A stretch of 64,000 nt of DNA from an uncultured Alphaproteobacteria bacterium (GTDB taxonomy: Bacteria > Pseudomonadota > Alphaproteobacteria > Rhizobiales > Beijerinckiaceae), in contig OY970154.1 of the NCBI GenBank assembly GCA_963706215.1, positions 2,190,243 through 2,254,242 on the forward strand. Reading direction: 5' to 3'. Positions within the stretch are counted from its first letter, which is position 1; every line of letters begins with the position of its first letter. The translations under genes and the position numbers were made by a program. The notes beneath the pieces are model-generated. The model ran no database searches and had not been told where the DNA came from. It saw only the letters and a program-made list of their open reading frames with translations. Shown here one piece after another: positions 18,210 to 60,967 of this stretch.

Positions 18210-20555
18210 TCAGCCGATGGCGGCGGTGCGCAGCCGCAAGGCATTGCCGATCACGCTGACCGAGGAGAGCGACATCGCGGCGGCGGCGATGACCGGCGAC
18301 AGAAGAATGCCGAAGGCCGGATAAAGAACACCGGCGGCGATCGGGACTCCGGCGGCATTGTAAATAAACGCGAAGAAGAGATTCTGCCGGATGTTGCGCA
18401 TCGTCGCCTCGGAGAGGCGGCGCGCGCGCAGGATACCCCGCAGATCGCCCTTAAGCAAGGTGACGCCCGCGCTCTCGATCGCGACGTCGGTGCCGGTGCC
18501 CATGGCGATGCCGACGTCGGCGGCGGCAAGCGCCGGTGCGTCGTTGACGCCGTCGCCGGCCATGGCCACAATTTGGCCTTTCGCGCGTAACCCCTCGACC
18601 ACGGCGCTCTTTTGGCTGGGCAGAACACCCGCCTTGACATCCGCGATGCCGAGCCCGCGCGCAACCGCCTCGGCGGTGGTTTTATTATCGCCGGTGAGCA
18701 TCACCACGCGCACGCCTTCGCTTTGCAGGGCCTTGACCGCGTCGAGCGCCGTGGGCTTCACCGGATCTGCGATGGCGAGGAGCCCGGCGGCCTTGCCGTC
18801 CAGCCCCATGAATATGACGGTGGCGCCGTCTTGCCGCAATTCGTCCGCCTCTTTGGCAAGCTCCTCCGTACCGATGCCGCTCGCGTCGAGAAAACCAGCG
18901 TTGCCGATCGTAAGCGTGTGCCCATCGACCATGCCGAGAACCCCTTTTCCGGCCGGAGCGTCGAACCCGGACGGCTCGGATAATTCGAGCTGGCGTTCCT
19001 TTGCCGCGTCAACGATCGCACCCGCGAGCGGATGCTCGCTGGCCCGCTCAAGGCTTGCCGCAAGCCGCAAAAATTCGTCCTCGGCAAGGCTGGCAAGGGT
19101 CCGGATCGCCACGACCTTGGGCTTGCCCTCGGTGAGCGTGCCGGTCTTGTCGACGACCAACGTGTCGATCTTTTCGATGCGCTCCAGTGCCTCGGCATTC
19201 TTGATGAGCACGCCCACTTGCGCGCCGCGTCCGACCCCAACCATGATCGACATGGGCGTCGCGAGGCCGAGCGCACAGGGGCAAGCGATAATCAAGACCG
19301 AGACGGCGGCGACGAGCCCGTGGGCGAAGCGCGGCTCCGGGCCAAGGATCGCCCAGGCGGCGAAGGCGGCAAGCGCCGTGGCGATCACCATGGGCACAAA
19401 CCAGGCGGCGACCTGATCGGCGAGGCGCTGGACCGGCGCCCGGCTCCGTTGCGCCTTGGCCACTAAATTCACGATCTGGGAAAGAAGCGTGTCGCTTCCA
19501 ACCTTTTCCGCGCGCATGACGAAGGAGCCGGTCTGGTTGAGCGTGCCGGCTATGACCTTGGCGCCCGCGTCCTTGCCAACCGGCATGGATTCGCCGGTGA
19601 CGAGCGACTCGTCGAGCGTCGCGCGCCCCTCGAGAATCGCTCCATCAACCGGCACTTTTTCGCCCGGCCGCACGCGCAGGCGGTCGCCAACGGCGATCGC
19701 ATCGAGCGGCACTTCCTCGTCGGTGTTATCGCCGCGAAGACGCCGCGCGGTCTTTGGCGCGAGGCCGAGAAGCGCCTTGATCGCGTTGGAGGTTTGTTCA
19801 CGCGCCCGGAGCTCCAACACCTGTCCGAGCAGCACGAGAACGGTGATAACCGCGGCGGCCTCGAAATAGATCGCGACCGAGCCTTCGGCGCCCCGGAACG
19901 CTTGCGGAAAAAGACCCGGCGCCAATGTCGCGACGACGCTGTAAGCCCAAGCGACGCCGGTGCCCATGGCGATCAGCGTGAACATGTTGAGGTTACGGGT
20001 GACGAGCGATCGCGCGCCGCGTTCGAAGAACGGCCAGCCCGCCCAAAGCACGACCGGAGTGGCAAGGACGAATTGCACCCAGTTCGACGTCATCCGCGAG
20101 ATCAGCGTGTGAAGGTTGAACAGATGCCCACCCATCTCCAAAACCACCACTGGCAGGCTAAGTGCGAGCGCGATCCAGAAGCGCTTGGTCATGCCGGCAA
20201 GCTCGGGATTTGGACCCGAATCCGCGCTCGCTACATCAGGTTCGAGCGCCATGCCGCAGATCGGACAATTGCCGGGGCCGGTCTGACGGATCTCCGGATG
20301 CATTGGGCAGGTGTAGATGGCGCCTTGCGGCACTGGTACCGGAGGTTTTGGCTTCTCGCCGATATAGGATGCGGGATCGGCGACGAATTTGGTTTTGCAC
20401 CCCTGGCCACAGAAATAATAGGTGTGACCGCCGTATTCGGCGCTGTGCTTGGCGCTGCCGGGATCGACATCCATGCCGCAAACCGGATCTTTTTCCAAAT
20501 GCGTGGCCTCGCCAACATTGCCTGACTGTGCGTGCGGGTGATCATGATCGTGCAT
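18210..20555 (-). CDS. copA: Cu(I)/Ag(I)-translocating P1B-type ATPase with YHS and YTCPMHP metal-binding domains
   Basis: [44 protein letters not shown] and MSLSS motifs; His-rich start MHDHDHPH. Confidence 0.93.
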
Positions 20556-20745
20556 CGGTTTGCTCCGGGACATCCATATCAAACCACCGATCCGCGCAGG
20601 GCGTCGAACATGGCCGCAAGGCAAGAGGTGGCTGACTTGATCTTGAGACATAGTGGCGCTCTCCGCATGTTCCAAGAGATCGCGTTCGATTGCCGAATTT
20701 ATGGGCGCGGCGGATGGATACATTCGCCGGGCCAAAACTCTGACC

Positions 20746-27799: not shown

Positions 27800-30700
27800 T
27801 GGCTACACGCGAAACGCGGCTTCAGCTTGCACCCGACAGACAGGCCCCCTTACCGCGCGGCCGGTCTCCGGCGCGGGCGGCATTATCCGATGACTATTTT
27901 AAAATTCCGCGTTTGCGACTTCTATCGGGGCCGGGTGCCGCGACCAGGTAGTGCCATCGCAGCATCAGGCTTTCGAGGCCGCGCGCCTCGCACAAGGAGA
28001 GAATGCTTTCGAAATCGGTAATCGTAACCGCGCTCTCCCCATGCCGGATCGCACTCTCCTCGCCGTCTCCGTAATCGGCTTCATCGGCGATCATGTGGTC
28101 GAAGAAGCTCGTCGGCGGCAGCTGTTTCTTGTCGCCCACGACGACGATCCTGCGGCAGCGCGCGACAAGACCCAAGGCGTCTTCCGGGCGCATTTGACTT
28201 GCCTCGTCGATGACGAGGAGATCGAAATCGACCGAACCCGGCGGCAGGAATTGCGCGACCGAGACCGGGCTCATGAGAAAGACCGGTTTGATTTTCTGGA
28301 TCGTGCCGCCCGCCGCCTTCATCAGCTTGCGCAACGGCATGTGAGCGCGCTTGCGGCCGATTTCGCCGCGTATCACACGCATATCGCCGAGGGCGCCGCG
28401 CGGGATTGCTGCCTGATGCCGCGCGCGAACATTGCGCACGGCGGCCTCGCGCGACCTCTCCTCGATCTCGACGAATTGCGCGACAAGCTCGCCGTGCCGG
28501 TCTCCGTCGAAGGCGGCGAGTTCGGAGTCGGCCGCGATCGCCTTTTTCCAGCAGGCTTCGGCAAAAGCGGCTTCGAGTTCCACATAAGCGTTCTTGGGAT
28601 CGAGCTCGCCCGTGGCAAGAGCATTGGCGATCCAGGCGGGTCCGGCCGCGCGCACCTTTCGATCAGCGTTGACGAGCCTTGCCCATTCCTCGAAACGAAC
28701 GTGACTCGCGGCCCACCCCGCCGCCCACTCGCTCAGACGATTGACGTCGATCGTTCCGATGGACTCGGTTTGAAAAGTCGCCGCGATGTCGAGGTCGAGA
28801 AATCTTATCGCATCGGCAAACATGGTGACCACCTCGTAGAGGAGGGTTTCGAGATGATCGCAATGTGCCTCGGCCGTGACGTCGCGGGCCATGCCGATGA
28901 CCCGCTCGGCGTTGAGATGCGGATCGAAGGCGGCCAGCTCCCCGGCTGTCCTGGCAACCTCGTGGATCAGGCGAAAGACCGTCCTTTTTTCTTGCCAGAC
29001 ATCGCTCAGAATACTCGCCAGGACTCCGGCCTCGGCGACAAATTTGCGGCGCAACGCCTGGCTCGCGAGGACCACGTCGAGGAGCGCGCGCCGGTCGGCT
29101 GGCCGCGCCGGCAACGGCACCGACAACAGGCTCGCGAGCGAACCTGCCGCCTTGCGGTAGGCTTTGCCCGCCCTGGCGAGCCAGGACGCCGCGCCTTGGG
29201 CGAGCGGCGCGCGAAGCTCCTCGACGAGACCGGCCCAGGCCGCCGGATGGAAAGCGTGGAGATAGGGCGCTTGCCGTTCCAGCCATTTCGCGCCGAGAGC
29301 GGCGGCATCGGCGGCGCTGCGCGGCGAAGGGGATGTGGCGATCATGGCGGCGATGTTTTCGGCTCCCCGCGGCAAATTCGATATGGCGCGGAAGATCGCG
29401 ATGAGAGTCTTGACGCCGGCCAAGGTTGGTTTGGCGGGGAGACCGAAATAATTCGTGACCATGGTTGCGTAGGCGGCGAGCGCCGCCGCTTTGCCGGCGA
29501 GCGCTTGCAGCTTCGGAATTTGGCGCCGGAAATCCGCGGGTTGCAAAGCGCTCCGCCGCTGCACGCCGACGTACATGTGGCGGTTCAGCAGGCCAGCGCT
29601 TTCCGTAAGGCACGCGAGCCGCTCGATCAGCCGCGCTTTTTCGGCGAATTCCTTGCCGGTCCAAAGCGCCGCCTCCTCGACAAGACGCGCATCGGGCGTA
29701 AACCCGCGCCGCGCCGCCGCGATTTGGATCGAGAGCGCTCGATACGGCGTCATGGCGGTGTCGCCTATCTGGGCGTTGAGGCGTCTTGCGATATGATTCA
29801 AGTGGTCACGCGCCGCGGTCGATTGCCTTGCCGTCTCGTCTGTCGCGGATGAGCCGGCGGCCGCTTGCAAAGCGCGATCCAGTCTTTCGGCAACGATCCG
29901 CTTGTTCGCGGCCCGGCCGTGGAGTTCGAGGCAGATATCGTCGAGGCCCACCTTGTCCAGCCGGTCATAAGCAACGTTGAGGGCGGCCGTTTTCCCGGCG
30001 ACGAACAGAACCGTTTGTCCGTCATGCACGGCCGCCGCGATAATATTCGTGATCGTCTGCGATTTGCCTGTTCCAGGCGGACCTTGGACGACAAGATTAT
30101 GTCCGGCGCGAACGGTCTCGATGACCCGCGCCTGTGAGGAGTCCGCGTCGACAACATGAATGAGATCGGTTGGATTTAATATTTCGTCCTGCCGGACGGC
30201 CTCGGGCGGGACCGGAGGCTCGGCCGCGAATCCTTCGCCGAGAAGCCCGCGCAAGAGCGGATGCGCGACCAGCGCATTGCCTGGCCAATTGGCGGGTTCA
30301 AGATCGCGCATCATCAACAGCTTCGCGAAGGAATAAAAGCCAAGCTCGATTGCATTGGCGTCGATCGACCATCGCCGCTTGGCGGCAACCGCATTGGCGA
30401 CCGCATCGAAGTAACTCGATGGCCGCCAATCTTCGGTCTTTGCAACATCGGGCAGGGCGAGGCCGAAATCGCCGCGCAGCCGTTCCTGCAAGGCCTGATT
30501 GGTGGCGATGTCGTCCTCGCGAAGCTTCAGATCGAAGGTCGAGCGCTCGGCATCGCGAACCAAGGAGACCGGAAGCAGGATCAGCGGCGCGTCGCGCGGC
30601 ACGCCGGATTCTTCGTTCTCGTACCAGCGCAGGAAACCAAGGGCGAGGAAGAGGATGTTGACGCCGCACTCCTCCTCGGCGGTCTTCGCGGCGCGCTGCA

Positions 30701-31079
30701 TCCCATGCAGCCGCTTGTGCAAAAGCCCGGGCGACAGCGATGTCTGCAAACCGGTCTGGTCGCTTGTCCTAGGGGTGACCGGACGCGGCGTTTCCGGGGT
30801 CGCCGCGTCGCGCCGCATGTCCGCGATTTCCTCGGCCGCGAGAACCCGCAGCGGCTTGCTCTGGCGAACGAGATTCGCGAAGACTTCATCCGATGCATTG
30901 CCGGTGAGGGTAAGCGCGCGCGACCGCTTGGCTCCCCGCGGGGAATGAATGAGCCGGTTGCGGGTCCCGGTTTCGATTAGCTTGAGCCGTGCTTCGGCGA
31001 GCAGTTTTTCGATAGGGATCCCGGCCCGGCCGCTGGCGGTCTGTCTCCTCGCCGTCCGGATCGAAGTGACTTTCCCCAT
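27800..31079 (-). pseudogene. DUF4011 + SF1 helicase gene (Hhe-like), frameshifted and truncated
   Basis: KLIETGTRNRLI, FLALGFLRW, QGPPGTGKSQT, DEASQ, VGDKKQLPP. An extra base at 27946 breaks HYRSRHP, TAA follows at 27899-27901, and the C-terminal helicase motifs and nuclease domain are absent. Confidence 0.85.
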
Positions 31080-31479
31080 TTGCGTCTCCCTTTTGCCCGG
31101 AGGCCGCCGCAAGGCCGCCTCGGGAATGTCTTCATTCATAAGCAAGTGAAGGGATACGTATGTGACGTAAAGTCAGCTGGCAATAATCAATGAGCAATGT
31201 TTAGATGATAACCTTTATTACTAAGATCTTCGCGAGATTCTTTACCAAATATTTACCAATGGCCCGCTTGGCGCGCTTTCCTGCCGGCTTGGAAGCCGCC
31301 GGGCCGCGTTACTAAATCCCCCCTAAATGTGGACCATCGAGCATGGTCCGGACCGTTGGCTTTCCGATCATGCTTTGACGTCTTGGTGTTCGCATGATCT
31401 TTATGGCCAACGAGCCTCTGGCCGGCATCGTCCGTTTTGCCTTTCGCCGCATTTTTGGCGCCAGACCCGAGAGACCGTG

Positions 31480-40416: not shown

Positions 40417-41952
40417 ATGGTGACAGGACCGGAGATCGAACTGAAGTTCCTGTTCGCGGAGAGGGACGGTGCCAGAGTCAAGGCCCTGGTTGCGGCGGCC
40501 TCCGGCGCCCGGCAGGCGACCCCTCAGCGCCGTCGCGCGATCTATTTCGATACGCCAAATCAGGACCTTTGGAACCGTGGGTTCACTGTGCAGGTCCGGG
40601 TGATCGGGGGAAGCCATGTTCAGACCGTCAAGCGGATGGCGTCCTCAAGCATCCAAAGAGACGAATGGGAAGCGCAAACCGGCCGGCGCGAACTCGATCT
40701 GGAGCCGATCAAAAATACCCCCCTCGCCCGTCTCGCCGGCAAACCTTCCATTCGCCGCGCAATGAGACCCGCCTTCGAAGTGGATGTTGAACGCACGTCC
40801 TATAGGCTCGAAACAGGCGCCGGTTGGATCGAGGCGTCCGTCGACCAAGGCGCGATCGAAGCGAACGGTGAAAAGCTTGGCGTGCACGAGCTGGAACTCG
40901 AATTGAAAAGCGGCGACCGGTCCGCCTTGTTCGACGTTGCCCGCACCTTTGTGTCGCAGGCGCCTCTCCATCCAAGCCTTATAGGCAAGGCCGAGCGCGG
41001 TCATCTTCTTGCCGAGGGCGCCTGGGGCCGCGCGGCGAAAAGTTCAAAGCCGCGTCTTGCCAAGGACATGACGTGCCGGCGAGCGTTCCAGGAAATCTGT
41101 CAGACTTGTCTGCACGACTTTCATTTGAATCTTCCGGGTTTGGAGAAGTCCGACAATGTCGAGGCATTTCACCAAGGCCGCATCGCGATTAGACGCCTTC
41201 GCGCGGCCATGGCGTTTTTTAAGCCGATGGCCTTCGATAGTGCATATCGAAGGCTTCGCGGCGAATTGAAGTGGCTGGCGGGTTTGTTTGGCGCGGCGCG
41301 GGACATGGATGTCCTACGGGCGAACTTGCCGCCGCCGGCCCCGGAGGATCAAGCGAGCATGCCGGCGGGAGAGTTCGCCGGCGATTGCGAAGCCAAGCGT
41401 CTTCGCGCGCATCAGGCGGTCGTCGAAGCCTTGGATGGCGAACGCGCGCGGACCATGCAGCTCGATCTCGCGGTGTGGATCGAGGACGGAAGATGGTACA
41501 GGCAGTCCTCCGGCATCGCGGAAGAACCAATACCAAGGTACGCCGGCGCCCGCCTGAGAAAACGCTGCGAAAAACTGGTGAAACAAGGCGCGGGCCTCGC
41601 AAACCTTGCTTCCGGCGCCCGGCACCACATTCGCATAGAGGCGAAAAAGCTGCGCTACATGGCGGAATTCTTCGTCGACGTCCCAGGCGTCGCCAAGGAT
41701 CATAAGCGCTTAAAAAAACTCATCAATTGCTGCGAAACGCTGCAGGCGGCCCTCGGCGCGATCCGTGACGAGGAGGCCGTGGCCGAATTCATGGAAAACG
41801 AGGTTTGGATCTGCGCCGACGCCGCCAATGGCCTGGCGGAGACAGCAATTTTGCCGGCCGGTCCGCCCCCGCGAGCGAAGGGCGGGATAGCCAAACAACT
41901 CCAAAAGGCGGTCCGCTCCTATTCGAAATTGGCCGCGATCGAGCCGATTTAA
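40417..41952 (+). CDS. CYTH + CHAD domain protein
   Basis: N-terminal EIELKF and ELELELK (CYTH); HQGRIAIRRLR, ARDMDV, HHIRIEAKKLRY (CHAD). Confidence 0.92.
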   Translation: MVTGPEIELKFLFAERDGARVKALVAAASGARQATPQRRRAIYFDTPNQDLWNRGFTVQVRVIGGSHVQTVKRMASSSIQRDEWEAQTGRRELDLEPIKNTPLARLAGKPSIRRAMRPAFEVDVERTSYRLETGAGWIEASVDQGAIEANGEKLGVHELELELKSGDRSALFDVARTFVSQAPLHPSLIGKAERGHLLAEGAWGRAAKSSKPRLAKDMTCRRAFQEICQTCLHDFHLNLPGLEKSDNVEAFHQGRIAIRRLRAAMAFFKPMAFDSAYRRLRGELKWLAGLFGAARDMDVLRANLPPPAPEDQASMPAGEFAGDCEAKRLRAHQAVVEALDGERARTMQLDLAVWIEDGRWYRQSSGIAEEPIPRYAGARLRKRCEKLVKQGAGLANLASGARHHIRIEAKKLRYMAEFFVDVPGVAKDHKRLKKLINCCETLQAALGAIRDEEAVAEFMENEVWICADAANGLAETAILPAGPPPRAKGGIAKQLQKAVRSYSKLAAIEPI

Positions 41953-53981: not shown

Positions 53982-54096
53982 CATCTTCCGGGGATCGCGA
54001 TCTTGCGCGAATCGCGGAGGGTCGCGGCGGGACCTTGATTTTGGTAGGCAATATACTGATGTCCCGGCGTGGTTTGTCATTTATCAAAGAGCGATC

Positions 54097-54723
54097 ATGA
54101 ACGATTCGAAAAAAGCCGAAAACGAAGCCGCCGCGATCGGCCCGGACGGGTCCACCGGCGATGCCGGCGCGGCGGTCGCCGGTCCTGCCGAGCAAGCTCC
54201 GGCTGGAGAACCGGATCCTTTCGTTGTCTTGGAAAATCTCCGGCTCGAAAACGCGGCGCTGAAAGACAAGGTCCTGCGCGCCCTCGCCGAGATGGAAAAT
54301 CAGCGCCGCCGCGCCGAGCGCGAGGTCGCCGACGCCAAAACCTATGGCGTGACCTCGTTTGCCCTCGATATGCTGACATTCGCCGACAATTTGCGGCGCG
54401 CCGTCGAAAGCCTGCCGCCCGATGCCCGCGAGCAGGCGGGGCCCGCGCTGAAAACCTTGATCGAGGGCGTTGAGCTCACCGAGCGCGACTTCCTGTCGCG
54501 GCTTGGCAGATACGGCGTCAAGAAGCTCGAACCACTTGGCGCCAAGTTCGATCCCAATCTCCATGAGGCGTTGTTCGAGGTGCCCGACGAGACGGCGCCG
54601 AACGCCACGGTGGTGCAGGTGGTCGAGGATGGCTACGCGATCGGCGATCGCGTGCTTCGCCCCGCCAAGGTCGGCGTCTCCCGCGGCGGTCCAAAACCCG
54701 CGAACGAAAACGCTCCCACGTAG
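54097..54723 (+). CDS. grpE: Nucleotide exchange factor GrpE
   Basis: [41 protein letters not shown]. Confidence 0.97.
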
Positions 54724-54797
54724 TCCGTGGAAGCGTTCTTTTTTCGTGCGAAGCGGCTTGGTCAGCGTCCGTTTTGCCGATGGGCCAGTGCCTTCGG

Positions 54798-55532
54798 CTA
54801 ATATTTGAAAGTGATGCCGGTGGACGCGATCCAGGGATCGATCTTGCCAAGGGTTCTGATGTGGATAGATGTGTTTAGGAGATTCCCTTGAAAGTCGGGA
54901 TTGAGGTAAATCAGCTTTTTCGCGTCGACAAAGACGCCCCAGTTTTGGGTCAGCATATAATCGAAGCCGCCTTGGACAACGAAGGAGAAAGTCGGATCAA
55001 CGCTGAAATTCGAAAGAATGCCGTCGCTGTTATTGGAGAACATCACCACATAGGCCGCGCCGGCGCCGAGATAAGGCTGAAAGGCACCGAATTGAGGGAA
55101 CTGGTATCGAAGGAGGCCCATGAGGGGCCCAACGCGCACGCTTCCCAAAGAGTCGGTACCCAAGAGTTGTGCAGCACTGAAAACAGTCGCCTTGATACGC
55201 AGGGGCGGGGGCACGCCGGCGGAAATTTCGAGCGCCCAATCTGGCGCGAAGAAATAGCCCGCTTCCAAGCCCAGGGTATAACTTGGCGGGATAGCTACGT
55301 TATTTAATGTGACGGTACCGAGGGGGGTCGGTATGTTCTTCAAGAACCCGCCTCCGGTCGACTGCGCGTCGGGCGGCGAGTAAAAGGCGCCCAGGGCGCC
55401 GACATGGACATAGAAGAGCGGCGGAGCCGGCGGAAGCGGTTCCGGCGTCGGAGTCAAATCCGCGGCGTCGGCACGCGTGATGGCGAGGGCTGCGACGACG
55501 GCAGCGGCCCAACTTTTGATAGCACCGGTCAT
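54798..55532 (-). CDS. OmpW-family outer membrane protein
   Basis: Signal peptide, AGVPP, QPYLGAG, QGGFDYM, IDPWI, terminal TFKY. Confidence 0.88.
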   Translation of the reverse strand: MTGAIKSWAAAVVAALAITRADAADLTPTPEPLPPAPPLFYVHVGALGAFYSPPDAQSTGGGFLKNIPTPLGTVTLNNVAIPPSYTLGLEAGYFFAPDWALEISAGVPPPLRIKATVFSAAQLLGTDSLGSVRVGPLMGLLRYQFPQFGAFQPYLGAGAAYVVMFSNNSDGILSNFSVDPTFSFVVQGGFDYMLTQNWGVFVDAKKLIYLNPDFQGNLLNTSIHIRTLGKIDPWIASTGITFKY

Positions 55533-55826
55533 GAACTTTCCCTCCAGTTTTATGTTCTACGGTTCACGCGATATTGACCCTTTGTCAAACGATCAGTGCT
55601 TGCAAAGATGCTTTCGATGCGCACTATGACTTTTTTGCCACGCTCGAAGACGCCCGGGAGCTTGGATGAGGGGCAATTGCAAATTGATTTGGAACAATGG
55701 GGGCGCTGCCGCATTGCGACAACATGGCCCCTACCCATGGCGTTGAGGATTCGCGATAAACCTTGGCGAGGCGTGGGAAACACGATCCCGAACGCCACGG
55801 GAAACAAAAAAACATGGAGCTACCGG

Positions 55827-56219
55827 ATGAGGCGCGCGATTGACCGGAGGGGACGGACCTTCCTCGTTTATTTCGTTGTGTTGCTTGGGTTCGGCCTCGG
55901 GATCTCCGGAGCCGCGGCGCATTCGCGTCTGGTTAAATCCGATCCTTCCGCGCGCGCTGTGCTCGAGACGGCACCCAAGGAGTTGAAGCTATGGTTTAAC
56001 GAGGGGGTCGAACCGGCGTTCGCGAAGGTGTGGATCATCCCGGCGCAGGGTGCGCAGATCCCCTTGACCAGCCATGGAGACAGTTCCGATCCGCGGCTTC
56101 TGATTGTCGCGTTTCCGGACAATCTGCCAGCCGGGCCGGTCAACATTGGATATCATATGTTGTCCGTCGACGGTCACACGGTTGACGACAAGCTTACCTT
56201 CACCGTCAAGGCACCATAA
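55827..56219 (+). CDS. copC: CopC periplasmic copper-binding protein
   Basis: Signal peptide then His1 (AAA-HSRLVKSDP), LWFNE, SVDGH; no Met-rich Cu(I) loop. Confidence 0.9.
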   Translation: MRRAIDRRGRTFLVYFVVLLGFGLGISGAAAHSRLVKSDPSARAVLETAPKELKLWFNEGVEPAFAKVWIIPAQGAQIPLTSHGDSSDPRLLIVAFPDNLPAGPVNIGYHMLSVDGHTVDDKLTFTVKAP

Positions 56220-56237
56220 GTTAGGCAGAGCGCGATC

Positions 56238-58274
56238 ATGATCGATCCATTTGCAATTGTCCGCGCCTTTGGGACCTTGGGGGCGGCGATCGTCGTCGGC
56301 TCGGGGATATTAATCTGGTACACACGCGATGCCCGTTCGCCTGCGGGAGGTTCCATTTGGCGCCGGCGGGTGGTGCTAACTGTTTTGGTGGCCGCTCTGG
56401 TCAGCGCCGTCGCAACCGTGGCGGGCGCGATCGGCGCCGCCGCCGCCGCCGCCGGAATCGGAGCGTTTTCGGTCGACGGCTCGATCATCGGGACCTTTTT
56501 TCTCCATACCGGAGTTGGCCGGATCACGATCGCCGAGATCGTGTGTGCCGTGGCGGCCTGCGTGCCTGCTTTGGTTGCCTGGTTTACGCTCAAGAGGACA
56601 AATATTTCGGACCTGCTTTTGCTCGCCGCGGCGCTGGTGGCGGCTCTTGGCCTCGCCACCGTGCCTTTCGCCAGCCATCCGACCACCCTAGACGAGCGTG
56701 TCCTAGGCCTCGCCGCGGCCATCCTCCACCGTTGGACGTTAAGCCTCTGGCTTGGCGGTCTGCCCGCTCTTATTCTGTTGATCGGAACCGGACCGGTTCC
56801 GGACGGCACCCAGCGTTTGGCGACTGTCGTCCTGCGCCGCTTTTCGCAGGTTGCGACTGTCGCAATGGGGATCATCCTGGTGACCGGGGGGATGCTGACC
56901 TGGCTTCTCGTCGGCAATTTTCCGGGAATGATCGGAACGGAATACGGACGCCTGCTGACCCTCAAGCTTACCTTGCTTGGCGGCATTCTTTTCATCGCCA
57001 GCGGACTGCAACGCCACCTTTTGCCGATGCTTGAGGCAAAGCCTAGCGATCCCACCTTTCGAAGCTATGCCAACCGGGTCAAGCTCGAGACCGTACTGGC
57101 AGTGCTCATGGTTGTCGTGGCATCCGACTTGGCCAGCCTGGCCCCGCCCGAGCATGAAAACATTGTTTGGCCGCTGCCATTCCGCTTCTCGTTCGCGGCG
57201 ACTTGGGCCATCCCCTGGGTTCCGACCCGCTTCATCGGCGGCGGTGCGCTGATTTTGTGTGGCATTGGGGCGCTCGTTCTCAGTCTTGTGCCGTCGCTTC
57301 GGCCCGCCTGGTTCCATATTTCGAAAAACGCCGGTCTTGGAGCGGGCGTTGCCGCGGCCTTGGCGGGAGGCGGGCTCGCCTTCCCCGCGATCTCGGTGCA
57401 GGCCTTCCCGGATACCTACCTCTCCACGGACATTCCCTATGCGGCAACGTCGATCACCGCCGGGCTCAAGCATTATGAAGACAATTGCACCGGCTGCCAT
57501 GGCGTGAGCGGCCATGGCGATGGGCCGGCGGCTTCGAGCTTGCCGGTAACGCCGGCCGATCTTTCGGCGCCGCACACGGCCTTGCACACCGGCGGCGACC
57601 TTTATTGGTGGGTGACCCACGGTATTTCTCCCTCCGGCATGCCGGCCTTTGCCGACGTCCTCAGCAATGACGATCGCTGGGACATCATCAATTTTCTCGG
57701 CGCTTTTTCCATTGGCTACCAGGCACGCATCATCGAACCCAAGATCAACCCGGGCCAGTACTGGCTCGCGCCCCCCGATTTCCAAATCACCGATGAAACC
57801 GGCAAGACCTTCATATTGAGCGACTATCGGCGCCAGTCCGCGATCCTCTTGGTGCTTTTTTCGTGTACGCGAGAGAACGTGGCGCAAGAAACGGCGCGGC
57901 TCGAACAGCTATTGACCGCCCGCTGGCGGCTGGCCGACCGCGGCGCCAAGATAGTCTTGGTTGCGCCCGGCAAGACGTGCGAGCCGCTGCGCCGCCTCGC
58001 AACCGGCAAGTTTCTCATCGCCGATCACGACACGGCGGACGTGGCCGCCACCTTTGGCTTTTTCACCCGCTCCTTTCACAACCGGAAACAGGACGTGGTC
58101 AGGGTTCCGGAAATCCACGCCGAGTTCTTGATCGACCGCTCCGGCTATATTCGCGCGCGTTGGCTGCCCGAGGAAGACAACAGTTGGAGCGATCCCGGTT
58201 TCATCGAAACGCAGCTCGATATGTTGGCGGGCGAGCCGCCGGCCCCGCCACCGCCTGGCCCGCACGACCACTGA
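56238..58274 (+). CDS. CopD-family membrane protein fused to a c-type cytochrome and an AhpC/TSA-like domain
   Basis: CopD helices (ASHP, LHRWTLSLWLGGL, YGRLLTLKL), CTGCHG heme motif near 57486 with distal SGMPAF, then PDFQITDETGK...EFLIDRSGYIRARW. Confidence 0.88.
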   Translation: MIDPFAIVRAFGTLGAAIVVGSGILIWYTRDARSPAGGSIWRRRVVLTVLVAALVSAVATVAGAIGAAAAAAGIGAFSVDGSIIGTFFLHTGVGRITIAEIVCAVAACVPALVAWFTLKRTNISDLLLLAAALVAALGLATVPFASHPTTLDERVLGLAAAILHRWTLSLWLGGLPALILLIGTGPVPDGTQRLATVVLRRFSQVATVAMGIILVTGGMLTWLLVGNFPGMIGTEYGRLLTLKLTLLGGILFIASGLQRHLLPMLEAKPSDPTFRSYANRVKLETVLAVLMVVVASDLASLAPPEHENIVWPLPFRFSFAATWAIPWVPTRFIGGGALILCGIGALVLSLVPSLRPAWFHISKNAGLGAGVAAALAGGGLAFPAISVQAFPDTYLSTDIPYAATSITAGLKHYEDNCTGCHGVSGHGDGPAASSLPVTPADLSAPHTALHTGGDLYWWVTHGISPSGMPAFADVLSNDDRWDIINFLGAFSIGYQARIIEPKINPGQYWLAPPDFQITDETGKTFILSDYRRQSAILLVLFSCTRENVAQETARLEQLLTARWRLADRGAKIVLVAPGKTCEPLRRLATGKFLIADHDTADVAATFGFFTRSFHNRKQDVVRVPEIHAEFLIDRSGYIRARWLPEEDNSWSDPGFIETQLDMLAGEPPAPPPPGPHDH

Positions 58275-58296
58275 GCGCCGGCCCTGCATATCGGGC

Positions 58297-58413
58297 CAGA
58301 GCATGTCCTTAAAAAAGTTGTTCGACTTTTTTGATTCCGACATGCTCCTGCTCTTTGAATTTGAGCGGTTCCTTGCCGGTCACCTGATTCCGCGCGATCG
58401 GAACGCGCTCTAG
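58297..58413. repeat. ~117-bp palindromic interspersed repeat (Rhizobiales MITE/RPE-like)
   Basis: Ends AGAGC...GCTCTAG; internal stem GAGCATGTC...GACATGCTC around AAAAAAGTTGTTCGACTTTTTT; second stem GATTCCGCGCGATC. Confidence 0.7.
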
Positions 58414-58450
58414 CTAGAGCAACGGGTAGCCGTAAGGCCCCAGCCGCTCG

Positions 58451-59017
58451 CTAGGCATTTGCCCCCGGCGCTTCGCCAGCGCTTGTCTTTGACGACCAGA
58501 CGGGTTGACCACCCTGTTCGTAGATCACGAGATTTCCGTCATCCTGCATCCTAAAAAATGCTTGAGGATATGATCCCGTGTTCGTTTGAAATAGGATGTT
58601 GTTATCGCCGCCAAGAATGAGCATGTTGCCGTCGTCCCGGAACACCAACTCCTTCGCCCCCTGATTTGCGGTATTTGACGCCCAGATAGGTGTCCAGGGC
58701 ACGTCGACGGCGGGTTTCGGCTTGGTCGGCCAGTTGGACGGCACATTGCCCGTATCGACGACCTGCAGCACAACATTGCCGTCAGTGGCTTGGAAGGTCA
58801 GCCGGAACGCCCGCGCGGGCGAATAAAGGCTTTCCCCTGCGCGGAGTGGCACAGGTGCCGCGTTTGGCGCTACCGGCCCCATCTGACATAAAATGTCACC
58901 CTGCATTGTATAAACCGGCGAACCGTCCGGTGCAGTACCGTCTATCGGCCGGGGGAGTATCTGAATATTCAACCCATAAACCCCCTCTTCTGCCGCCTTA
59001 GGATAACTATAAGGCAT
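58451..59017 (-). CDS. Bulb-type (B-type, mannose-binding) lectin domain protein
   Basis: One intact QxDxNxVxY site (QDDGNLVIY) and two degenerate ones (RDDGNMLI, ATDGNVVL), with IWASNT/VWSSKT; RBS GGAG. Confidence 0.85.
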   Translation of the reverse strand: MPYSYPKAAEEGVYGLNIQILPRPIDGTAPDGSPVYTMQGDILCQMGPVAPNAAPVPLRAGESLYSPARAFRLTFQATDGNVVLQVVDTGNVPSNWPTKPKPAVDVPWTPIWASNTANQGAKELVFRDDGNMLILGGDNNILFQTNTGSYPQAFFRMQDDGNLVIYEQGGQPVWSSKTSAGEAPGANA

Positions 59018-59264
59018 GATTTTGCTCCATTCCGCTGTTCTGGTTGTAAGTTGGCTTGCCTCAGTCAGTGCGATCGGGAGGTAACTTTGCCCGAAGTCGC
59101 AATCCCGCGACGCTTCGGAGTTTGCCCATAAGGGCGCAGGATCGCATCATCAGAATTGGTGAGGCGTGATAGAAATTTGATGTGTTGATTGGATGCGATG
59201 TCGGAAACTGAGGGAAAGTCAGAAATTGAAAGGCCTATTTTTTGTTTAATGGGCTCTCGTCGAT

Positions 59265-59823
59265 CATACCGCACCCCGCCGATGACGCCGATGCATTCGC
59301 CGAATTCGACCTGCACATGGCCAGGCGGATGGGCCAGCGGCACGAAGACCTCGCGGGCTCGTGTCCGCGCGATCCGAACGTAATCCTTCACCACGGTATA
59401 ACCGCCGGCAAAGCCGTGTTCGAGCCGCAGCCGTTCGAAAATCCGCTTCGCGGTGTGACGCTGTTTCTTGTGAACGCTGCGGTCGCTTTCAAGAATGGCG
59501 TCAATCCACGCCATAAAAGGTCCAAGCTTCCTGGACGCCGGCCGCTCGCGCCGCCGATATCCAGGCGGAACGGAAAAACTCAGCATCTTCGTGATCGTGT
59601 TCCGATGAATGCCAAACCGCTTCGCCGCTTCCCTGCGGCTCAGCCCCTCAATCATCACCGCATGTCTGACCTTGGCATAAAGTTCCACTGTGAACATCCT
59701 TCCAGCCCCTCCATGCCAATCACCGGCATCGGAACGGCCTAGCAGGACCGGTACACTATTGCGCCGCCGTCATACCCCAGCGCACAGCCGGTTCAGTGGT
59801 ACACTTTGCATCCGCGATTTATA
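59265..59823 (-). mobile_element. IS21-family left end with truncated istA
   Basis: IstA N-terminus (start 59697: EGLSRREAAKRFGIHRNT, QRHTAKRIFERL, VFVPLAHPPG) breaks off after VIGGVR; left end has repeated AGTGTACC. Confidence 0.88.
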
Positions 59824-59878: not shown

Positions 59879-60967
59879 TCATCCATGCGAAACTGCAATC
59901 CCGCCAAGCAGCGCAACCACTTCGGCCTGACGGCGGCAGCCGGTCTTTTCCAGCACTCCACGCACTTGAGTGCGGATCGTGTTGAGCGAAACGCCACCAG
60001 TGGAAGCGATTTCATCGACTGTTTCTCCGGCGCTCAGGCTGCGGGCGACGCGCGCCTCGGCGGGTGTCAGGTCGAACAGGGACTGCACCAGTTCGACCGG
60101 CGGTGCTTGCGGTAAGGTCACGGGTGTCATCACCAGGACTCCGGCGCAGCGCACGAATATGTCGCGGGCCGTTCTGCGAATGGGGATGACATGAGCGACC
60201 ATCGCCGCGCTGGCGTCGACGCTGCGAACCGCAAAGGAGCGCACCGGCGCGACGCTTTCTATGGCGAGGGTCGTGATGGCTTGCTGGAACAGCGCATTGG
60301 CGCTGGAGTTTTTCAGCGAGATTCGATCTTGCGCGCGCCACCTAATGTGATTGGTCAGCGCTTCAATCAAATGGTTCGCCGCGAGAACCTTGCCCTGATT
60401 GTCGAAAACCAGCGCCGGCAAGCCGATCAGCGACAGCGTTTCGGCGGCGGCACGCGCCCGCTCCAACTGGAGCCGCGCAGACATCAGCGCGCTGCGAGCA
60501 AGGTGCGGCCGCAATGCGTCCAACTGTTGGATGAAGGTTTGTTCCACGGGTCCGCGGGAATAGCTGCGTTCTACACTCAAAGCTATCAAATCCCCGGTTG
60601 GCAAGGGAACGACCGTTATCGCCATCCAACCAAGTCCGTGCGGGCGATAAAAGTCTCGATATGTCGGATCGCTATCCAATTCTTCGGCGGTGAAAACGTC
60701 AGATTCGGTCAAGAACCCGGCGTGATGGGCCTGAAAGCAGCGATAACGCCGTTGATCGTGGGAAAACCACGGCCCTGAAAAATAAGACGTTGCATCTTCA
60801 AATATGTCTGTCGATGCGGTCCAGCGTAGAATTCCAACATCAGGCTTGGCAGTAAAAAATACGCCGCCGCGCGCATCAGCGATTTGGGCGAGTTCATCCA
60901 AAACGCCCGGCCAAAGCTCGGGTGCGAATGAGCATTCGTAGATGCGATCGATGAGTTGCGGGTCCAT
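59879..60967 (-). CDS. LuxR-type HTH transcriptional regulator with N-terminal sensor-like domains
   Basis: C-terminal LTPAEARVA...SLNTIRTQVRGVLEKTGCRRQAEVV; LIDRIYE start and a PAS-like middle. Confidence 0.9.
   Translation of the reverse strand: MDPQLIDRIYECSFAPELWPGVLDELAQIADARGGVFFTAKPDVGILRWTASTDIFEDATSYFSGPWFSHDQRRYRCFQAHHAGFLTESDVFTAEELDSDPTYRDFYRPHGLGWMAITVVPLPTGDLIALSVERSYSRGPVEQTFIQQLDALRPHLARSALMSARLQLERARAAAETLSLIGLPALVFDNQGKVLAANHLIEALTNHIRWRAQDRISLKNSSANALFQQAITTLAIESVAPVRSFAVRSVDASAAMVAHVIPIRRTARDIFVRCAGVLVMTPVTLPQAPPVELVQSLFDLTPAEARVARSLSAGETVDEIASTGGVSLNTIRTQVRGVLEKTGCRRQAEVVALLGGIAVSHG

Follow-up and report, generated by a model that had tools for sequence, protein, structure and literature searches.

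Here we present an analysis of a copper-related gene pair, copC followed by an enlarged copD, in a 64,000-nucleotide stretch of DNA (the window) from an uncultured alphaproteobacterium of the family Beijerinckiaceae (assembly GCA_963706215.1, contig OY970154.1, positions 2,190,243 to 2,254,242 of the forward strand). The second gene encodes a 678-residue protein in which a CopD membrane core is continued by two further helices, a class I cytochrome c domain, a peroxiredoxin fold that appears to be catalytically disabled, and a Pro-rich tail ending in H-x-H. A preliminary description, made from the letters of the DNA alone, had taken the pair for a possible redox-coupled copper import module in which the heme and thioredoxin-like domains might reduce the Cu(II) delivered by CopC or pass copper to a cuproenzyme. 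The features of the pair, in window coordinates, are as follows.

55827-56219, plus strand: copC, 130 aa (Pfam CopC, 3.8e-19), residues 1-31 signal-peptide-like
56169-56171 and 56175-56177, plus strand: CopC Asp115 and His117, the D-x-H of the Cu(II) site
56238-58274, plus strand: fusion gene, 678 aa, encoding CopD, extension, cytochrome c, peroxiredoxin fold and tail
56238..57149, plus strand: CopD core, residues 1-304, eight transmembrane helices (Pfam and NCBIfam CopD; AlphaFold2 helices)
56676-56678 and 56727-56729, plus strand: CopD His147 and His164, aligned to YebZ His135 and His154
57150..57407, plus strand: subfamily extension, residues 305-390, with predicted periplasmic PPEH306ENIVW311PLPFR316 and then transmembrane helices 9 and 10
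57420..57731, plus strand: class I cytochrome c domain, residues 395-498, predicted periplasmic (Pfam, PDB relative, Foldseek, conservation)
57486-57500 and 57639-57641, plus strand: CxxCH (Cys417, Cys420, His421) and distal ligand Met468, from conservation
57750..58232, plus strand: peroxiredoxin/thioredoxin-fold domain lacking a catalytic motif, residues 505-665 (Foldseek, family profile, alignments)
57864-57866, 57978-57980 and 58116-58118, plus strand: Cys543 and Cys581, both clade-specific, and His627, in the column of the catalytic Arg
58233..58274, plus strand: Pro-rich tail EPPAPPPPGPH676DH678 and stop codon (family consensus EPxxxPPP[DE][DE]H[VIL]H-COOH)

The first gene encodes a member of the CopC family that scores well above the Pfam cut-off (PF04234, 69.9 bits against 23.3) and falls below those of the NCBIfam CopC equivalog models (74 against 95 and 57 against 129). 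Of the solved proteins, the one it matches best is CopC from Methylosinus trichosporium OB3b (5ICU). The N-terminus is signal-peptide-like and ends GAAA, with His32 (55920-55922) as the predicted His1 of the mature protein. Among 102 partner CopCs, all encoded directly upstream of relatives of the fusion gene, His32 is kept in 100 of 100, Glu59 in 101 of 102, and Glu62, Asp115 and His117 in all 102. The aligned segments of these proteins contain between zero and four Met residues, and the mature window CopC contains one, a scarcity which means that the Met-rich Cu(I) loop is absent. These residues point to a periplasmic CopC of the Cu(II)-only type with a His-brace type site, in agreement with what the preliminary description had read from His1, Glu and D-x-H. 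The copC stop codon (56217-56219) is separated from the ATG at 56238 by the 18 nt reported there, and copC lies directly upstream of the fusion gene in all 48 close loci and in 57 of 61 distant ones.

In the 678-residue protein, the CopD core scores 69.5 bits against PF05425 (cut-off 32.1). Residues 6-304 also span positions 5-295 of the 295-position NCBIfam profile NF033808, at 104.2 bits where the equivalog cut-off is 195; the protein is therefore a member of the CopD family and not an equivalog of canonical CopD. Escherichia coli YebZ, which at 290 aa accords with the expectation that a plain CopD has about 300, is 28% identical to the core by BLASTP, and its C-terminus falls at the equivalent of Pro303. 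A GH motif aligns His147 with YebZ His135, and an H-x6-W-x-G-G-L motif aligns His164 with His154; both YebZ residues are needed for copper uptake in E. coli (PMC11923076). His147 occurs in 99% of the fusion family and His164 throughout it (100%), and Thr234, Gly237, Lys243 and Glu284 complete the set of conserved CopD features retained here.

The core is followed by the extension that characterizes this subfamily. It opens with the segment P303-x-x-H306-x4-W311, in which Pro303 and Trp311 are invariant across the family and His306 is present in 99% of members. An AlphaFold2 model of the whole protein, built on 132 sequences, has a mean predicted local distance difference test score (pLDDT) of 95.2 and a predicted template modelling score (pTM) of 0.89. 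It contains ten transmembrane helices, together with folds of the cytochrome c and thioredoxin types. Loops assigned to the cytoplasm carry a mean of 10.0 Lys and Arg residues, as against 5.5 for periplasmic loops, and 123 of the 132 family sequences follow this bias. The bias and the even number of helices agree in putting the N-terminus on the periplasmic side, along with all that comes after helix 10. Helices 9 and 10 are thus predicted to return the chain to the periplasm, with the heme and peroxiredoxin-fold domains both on that side of the membrane and not in the cytoplasm. Attachment of c-type heme requires the periplasmic side.

The cytochrome c domain exceeds the Pfam Cytochrom_C cut-off (45.1 bits against 21.3) and contains the single CxxCH of the protein (residues 417-421), together with a conserved PH446...H450TxGD motif. 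Both CxxCH and Met468 are kept in all 111 close relatives, as well as in all 120 representatives at 30-40% identity, and the domain is very probably a His/Met-ligated class I heme c domain. Its closest solved relative is cytochrome c552 of Thioalkalivibrio paradoxus (PDB 7O9U, 9VR0; E 1e-12, 37% identity), with a Foldseek TM-score, normalised to the target, of 0.74 against 9VR0. That protein has the PH..HxxGD motif in common with the fusion. Its heme is exposed and has a midpoint potential (Em) close to +160 mV, its termini are rich in His, and it serves as redox partner to the copper enzyme thiocyanate dehydrogenase (PMC9456337). It is, however, soluble and stands alone, whereas the heme domain described here is fused to a transporter.

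The last domain had been called AhpC/TSA-like. Unlike CopD and cytochrome c, both above their Pfam cut-offs, its AhpC-TSA match (PF00578) is sub-threshold, at 19.1 bits for the full protein and 23.1 for the domain alone (cut-off 26), so that this third part of the proposed fusion stands by virtue of its fold, as backed by the family profile and by structural comparison. When 38 family members were scanned individually, AhpC-TSA was matched in 29 (E<=1), Redoxin in 7 and SCO1-SenC (PF02630) in none. The family profile matches AhpE best (4.7e-8), and Foldseek matches include Bcp, AhpE, other peroxiredoxins, glutathione peroxidases, TlpA-like proteins, ResA and BsSco at target-normalised TM-scores of about 0.4-0.72, BsSco being a weak fold match only (0.53).

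The catalytic apparatus of these enzymes is missing from the domain. The FTGIC loop of AhpE faces a three-residue gap in the family profile; the column of the peroxidatic Cys holds Ser in the family consensus and Glu550 in the window protein; and that of the catalytic Arg (AhpE Arg116) is occupied by His627, a His which recurs in all close relatives and in 80 of 119 distant representatives. None of CxxC, CxxxC and PxxxTxxC occurs in this domain of the window protein, and in no family member does it have CxxC or CxxxC. The motif EFLID633RxGYxR639ARW is nearly invariant. The close clade has gained a five-residue insertion carrying Cys543, in the loop before the first helix, as well as Cys581; each Cys is about 94% conserved within the clade and absent outside it. 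Since there is no CxxC, the Cys loop is deleted and the loop Cys is confined to one clade, the domain is not a thiol reductant, and the earlier suggestion that it reduces Cu(II) has to be abandoned. From the alignments we assign it as a disabled peroxiredoxin fold, which has its best profile and fold match in the 1-Cys enzymes AhpE and Bcp of the AhpC-TSA family and differs from them in the lost peroxidatic Cys loop, in having His627 for Arg116, and in the added Pro-rich H-x-H tail. The His four residues before FLID may resemble the His of Sco in its position. On account of that His and of a remark in the literature, a Sco-like copper domain was considered and rejected: there is neither a CxxxC nor a SCO1-SenC match, and the domain is nearer to AhpE and Bcp.

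The protein ends ...PPAPPPPGPHDH, with residues 671-678 modelled at a pLDDT of 80. The PPPPGPHDH terminus of the preliminary description is thus present, and its H-x-H is a family-wide character: among the distant representatives, His676 is kept in 118 of 119 and His678 in 111 of 119, the second His being the very last residue in most. This holds less well in the close clade, where only about half of the members have the consensus His as last residue and others end HSQH. The conserved His627 and tail suggest that the former active-site pocket may now bind metal together with the tail.

A scan of 1.84 billion cluster representatives returned 383 proteins at E<1e-30, and full-length relatives (620-700 aa) that align end to end make up more than 150 clusters at 50% identity. 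With CxxCH, Met468 and the His residues conserved as they are, chance is ruled out. The closest relatives of the 678-residue protein, at 97-54% identity, belong to metagenome-assembled genomes (MAGs) named Methylocella in GTDB usage, to the upland soil cluster alpha (USC-alpha) MAGs USCa_MF and USCa_AHI, and to Methylocapsa aurea, M. polymorpha and M. palsarum, and the exact sequence is contained in soil metagenomes. Distant members were found by protein search in records labelled Bradyrhizobium, Rhodoferax, Nevskia, Burkholderiales and Nitrospiraceae. Public annotation of the proteins varies, from 'copper export protein/cytochrome c family protein/peroxiredoxin' at the Joint Genome Institute (JGI) to 'CopD family protein' at NCBI. 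Two apparent split versions, taken from stand-alone cytochrome c plus peroxiredoxin-like proteins of 326-392 aa, were checked and set aside; both begin no more than about 140 nt from the end of a contig, and are therefore probably truncated gene calls. Also, an Anaerolineae MAG (L038, 1622-5524) has a single open reading frame (ORF), about 1300 aa long, with matches to both CopC and the CopD-cytochrome c region, pointing to a still larger fusion in Chloroflexota.

The expectation that the fusion would already be in databases was thus borne out, and the architecture is also in print: a 2025 paper reports that about 4% of CopDs, including that of M. trichosporium OB3b, carry a cytochrome c and a Sco1/thioredoxin-like domain (PMC11923076). 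The three-part arrangement is therefore not new, and no mechanism for it has been published. To this the present analysis adds that the catalytic residues of peroxiredoxins are lost, that the protein ends in H-x-H-COOH, how strong the linkage to PmoD and copper membrane monooxygenase (CuMMO) genes is, and that one clade has a relocation and cysteines of its own. By the published description, OB3b is alike in its three-part CopD, in the copC directly upstream and in a methanotroph-related host lineage, and its CopC is the best solved relative of the window's Cu(II)-only protein. It differs in that the window pair lies outside a pmo operon, and in the five-residue insertion with Cys543, plus Cys581, of the window's clade.

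PmoD homologues, identified by their match to 6CPD (2.6e-19), were found in 31 of the 42 distant loci with enough upstream DNA, and CuMMO subunit genes (AmoC, AMO, Monooxygenase_B) in seven of the 12 distant loci that have 6 kb or more on each side. By precomputed Pfam calls, CuMMO genes are adjacent in five of seven long contigs, including Bradyrhizobium and Rhodoferax ferrireducens records. This adjacency matches the layout of the OB3b operon, pmoCAB-pmoD-copC-copD-pCuAC (PMC6189053). In the close clade the linkage has mostly been lost, with PmoD in two of 36 loci and CuMMO genes in two of 18. A residual link between copCD and pmo nevertheless persists in the form of lone pmoC and pmoD genes downstream of the pair in Methylocapsa polymorpha (RX1, L030) and one MAG. 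Outside the methanotrophs, copC and copD have been reported in the extended amo operons of ammonia oxidisers. Copper hand-over to a cuproenzyme, the second of the earlier proposals, fits this strong family linkage to pmoD and CuMMO genes.

Several further observations concern these loci. The lone pmoC is accompanied by a pmoD homologue and a gene of the 299-aa type, all on the opposite strand 4-7 kb downstream of copCD (L028, 11702-15365; L030, 13000-16667), and in another MAG (L017, 13208-13738) pmoC starts 3 kb downstream of the pair. CuMMO sets stand beside copC and a heme-CopD in L130 (Bradyrhizobium SPQS01000041.1, 2737-8992), L131 (Rhodoferax ferrireducens QEII01000281.1, 1-9109) and L045 (a Xanthobacteraceae MAG), labels of genera that are not generally counted among methane or ammonia oxidisers; near the Rhodoferax set there are, in addition, pqqA-E-like genes and one for an aldehyde dehydrogenase. 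In the distant loci L042 (9040-9483), L043 (9087-9407) and 11 others, the fusion gene is closely followed downstream by one for a signal-peptide protein of about 147 aa, whose predicted mature N-terminus begins HSDEY, in the position held by PCuAC in the OB3b operon. Apart from PmoD, the recurrent neighbours, of about 147-170 aa and 299 aa, gave no significant match in a Pfam scan. Also, a FadL/TodX-type channel gene follows the fusion gene in the distant locus L044.

The genomic setting of the pair in the window is that of its close clade, which keeps the order glnD-grpE-ompW(-)-copC-copD, up to the end of copD. The flanking features are the following.

54798..55532, minus strand: OmpW-family outer-membrane protein gene (Pfam OmpW, 3.3e-18), divergent from copC
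55533..55826, no strand: divergent ompW-copC intergenic region, with clade-conserved blocks near its ompW end (MAFFT, 41 intergenic regions)
58451-59017, minus strand: 188-aa ORF with a sub-threshold bulb-type lectin match
59065-59697, minus strand: 210-aa fragment containing a helix-turn-helix, resembling the N-terminal part of an IS21-type transposase
59879-60967, minus strand: LuxR-type regulator, third gene downstream of copD

An OmpW homologue lies upstream in 39 of the 40 close-clade loci with at least 1.5 kb of upstream DNA, as against one of 50 distant loci; ompW is a conserved neighbour of copC in this clade and may be functionally tied to copCD. In the alignment of the 41 intergenic regions, the conserved blocks read GGGTTCACGCGATATTGA...TTTGTCAA.CGATC and CTATGACTTTTTTGCCACG. 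A promoter scan of 55533..55826 found no sigma-70 consensus site upstream of copC, and the terminator-like matches found by a terminator scan inside the genes were judged not credible. An intergenic palindrome, TTGAC-N5-GTCAA, was considered as a regulator site and discarded, given that its half-sites (TTGA-N7-TCAA) are unlike FNR/FixK boxes and that the left half is unconserved in more distant loci.

In most close relatives, an unannotated minus-strand gene of about 330 aa lies just downstream of copD and converges on it, so that the unit consists of copC and copD only. The window differs here: the lectin-like ORF, the IS21-type fragment and the LuxR-type gene stand in place of genes conserved in 19 related loci. 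In two soil runs labelled RNA-Seq, coverage of 54000-58523 is even, across the intergenic DNA too, and falls to zero after 58524. With coverage by related strains ending there, the three genes look like a strain-specific insertion. Considered as evidence of expression or co-transcription, these runs were rejected, because such coverage is compatible with DNA carry-over or related strains and therefore says nothing reliable on either. Elsewhere in the window, among housekeeping genes about 35 kb from copCD, lies the gene for an 841-aa P1B-type ATPase (18210-20735, minus strand), which carries metal-binding YHS and HMBD domains at its N-terminus and probably pumps copper or heavy metals. A survey of large ORFs also met a 1083-aa DUF4011/AAA_11 helicase-like protein (27894-31145, minus strand) and a CYTH-CHAD protein (40417-41952, plus strand), both unrelated to copCD.

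Taken together, these data lead us to read the locus as a two-gene copper acquisition or delivery unit of Methylocapsa/USC-alpha-type Beijerinckiaceae, with a heme-mediated step from Cu(II) to Cu(I), a reading to which we give a probability of roughly 45%. Its components are not on an equal footing. We are highly confident of what the parts are, and the domain matches and conserved residues support a copper unit of the CopC/CopD type; a role in supplying copper to copper enzymes appears rather probable; and reduction of Cu(II) by the heme, an attractive and testable hypothesis, is at present doubtful. The ideas of copper import and of service to a cuproenzyme, both already voiced before this analysis, were reasonable ones.

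In the mechanism that we envisage, CopC would capture Cu(II) in the periplasm and dock at CopD His147 and His164, much as docking of a CopC-type protein at periplasmic His of CopD has been modelled for YobA-YebZ (PMC11923076). One electron would then come from the fused heme c, itself supplied by c-type cytochromes of the periplasm, so that copper would leave CopC's Cu(II)-specific site as Cu(I). His306, the degenerate pocket (His627, plus Cys543 and Cys581 in the clade) and the H-x-H end on its Pro-rich arm may form a relay, from which Cu(I) would either be translocated through CopD to the cytoplasm or be handed to periplasmic targets such as particulate methane monooxygenase (pMMO) or PmoD.

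Known systems resemble parts of this scheme. E. coli YobA-YebZ, of the AZY operon, also pairs a CopC-like periplasmic Cu(II) protein with an eight-helix CopD bearing both functional His, but YebZ lacks the extension, the heme and the peroxiredoxin-like domain, and the system has a third partner, YebY (PMC11923076). Bacillus subtilis YcnJ (CopC-CopD-YtkA), which serves copper uptake under copper limitation, is likewise a CopD with an extracytoplasmic, copper-related C-terminal domain that aids cuproenzyme assembly; according to a 2026 paper, this YtkA domain helps CuA assembly, and no reductase is known for YcnJ (PMC13344008). In YcnJ, however, CopC is fused, the C-terminal domain is YtkA/DUF1775-like, and no redox cofactor is known. 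For one-electron reduction of Cu(II) in copper trafficking, CcoG of Rhodobacter capsulatus and the eukaryotic Fre, Steap and Dcytb proteins offer a possible functional analogy only: CcoG has two [4Fe-4S] clusters and is unrelated in sequence to the fusion protein, and the eukaryotic enzymes use b-type hemes and cytoplasmic reductants. In eukaryotes, heme reductases reduce Cu(II) before import by Ctr1 (PMC7558416). The redox step of our reading is indirectly supported by these eukaryotic reductases, by the invariance of the heme, by the potential and the copper-enzyme partner of its nearest relative, and by the case of YcnJ, which has no known reductase.

Other data weigh against this reading. 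About 96% of CopDs work without heme (PMC11923076), and since most CopDs, including the functional YebZ and YcnJ, have none, reduction is not intrinsic to CopD transport. No match to PmoA, PmoB, PmoC or PmoD occurs within the 64-kb window, so that the pair has no adjacent CuMMO gene, and the window by itself does not establish a pMMO in its host. A further point concerns M. trichosporium OB3b, which also makes methanobactin. [quoted passage not shown] In the draft genome of USC-alpha, no methanobactin or Csp genes were found (PMC6849597). A bolder version of our reading would make the protein a heme-dependent periplasmic cupric reductase built into a permease, a counterpart of Fre/Steap plus Ctr1 with a pseudoenzyme relay (His627 and H-x-H), forming a copper line dedicated to CuMMOs, including the high-affinity pMMO of methanobactin-free atmospheric methane oxidisers; in this full form we think it unlikely.

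Alternatively, the pair may act not in import but within the periplasm, as an insertase or chaperone that supplies copper to CuMMO or PmoD, with CopD mainly anchoring and positioning the periplasmic domains: copper from CopC would pass to the peroxiredoxin-like domain and H-x-H tail and on to periplasmic copper sites, and the heme would set its oxidation state. That the family is tightly linked to pmoD and CuMMO genes argues for such a role, as do the conservation of His627 and the H-x-H end and the precedent of two CopD-fused domains, YtkA in YcnJ and CtaG in CtiP, that act in cuproenzyme assembly (PMC13344008, PMC9145763). The CopD core, however, keeps every conserved feature of the transporter, which favours continued transport, and in most close-clade loci the pair is unlinked from pmo genes; we consider this explanation rather unlikely. 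Linkage to CuMMO operons, the invariant heme motif and the closest solved cytochrome, itself the redox partner of a copper enzyme (PMC9456337), would equally suit a membrane-anchored cytochrome c that feeds or drains electrons for CuMMO or PmoD, with CopD as a scaffold and copper secondary. It is difficult to see why such an accessory would have copC so consistently upstream, or why it would retain the copper-uptake His of CopD in 99-100% of the family; moreover, the genes stand outside the pmo operon in the window's clade, and OB3b without copCD retains its copper switch as far as the summary in PMC7558416 goes. We hold this role to be improbable.

Export or detoxification would run the scheme backwards: Cu(I) would leave the cytoplasm through CopD, the heme domain would oxidise it, and CopC would capture the resulting Cu(II). 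That CopC binds only Cu(II) suits this direction, and public labels such as 'copper resistance protein D' and 'copper export protein' imply it, but these labels are automatic annotations, experiments on YebZ and YcnJ support import (PMC11923076, PMC13344008), and no copA/copB (pcoA/pcoB) or copRS resistance genes flank copC-copD in the window; we judge export to be highly improbable. Least credible of all is an active peroxiredoxin or thiol-disulfide oxidoreductase, for instance one reducing target cysteines as TlpA and Sco do. Weak AhpC-TSA matches, the profile and Foldseek matches to AhpE, Bcp, ResA, TlpA and BsSco, and the presence of Cys543 and Cys581 in the close clade could be cited for it. 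Against these stand the absence of CxxC, CxxxC and PxxxTxxC, the deletion of the peroxidatic Cys loop in the wider family with His in the catalytic Arg column, the lack of both cysteines outside the close clade, and the failure of all 38 scanned members to match SCO1-SenC.

The value of these findings lies in a sharper anatomy of an architecture already in print, not in the discovery of a new kind of protein. How bacteria convert the Cu(II) held by CopC into Cu(I) that can be transported or inserted is an open question, and to our knowledge no specific cupric reductase other than CcoG, an Fe-S protein, has so far been described in bacteria. Whether reduction is coupled to CopC/CopD transfer could naturally be tested in a CopD whose fused heme c is invariant. 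The family accompanies CuMMO genes in methane oxidisers and in the Bradyrhizobium and Rhodoferax records, and is also present in the USC-alpha lineage, which has been proposed as the chief biological sink of atmospheric methane; its function therefore bears on the copper supply to these enzymes.

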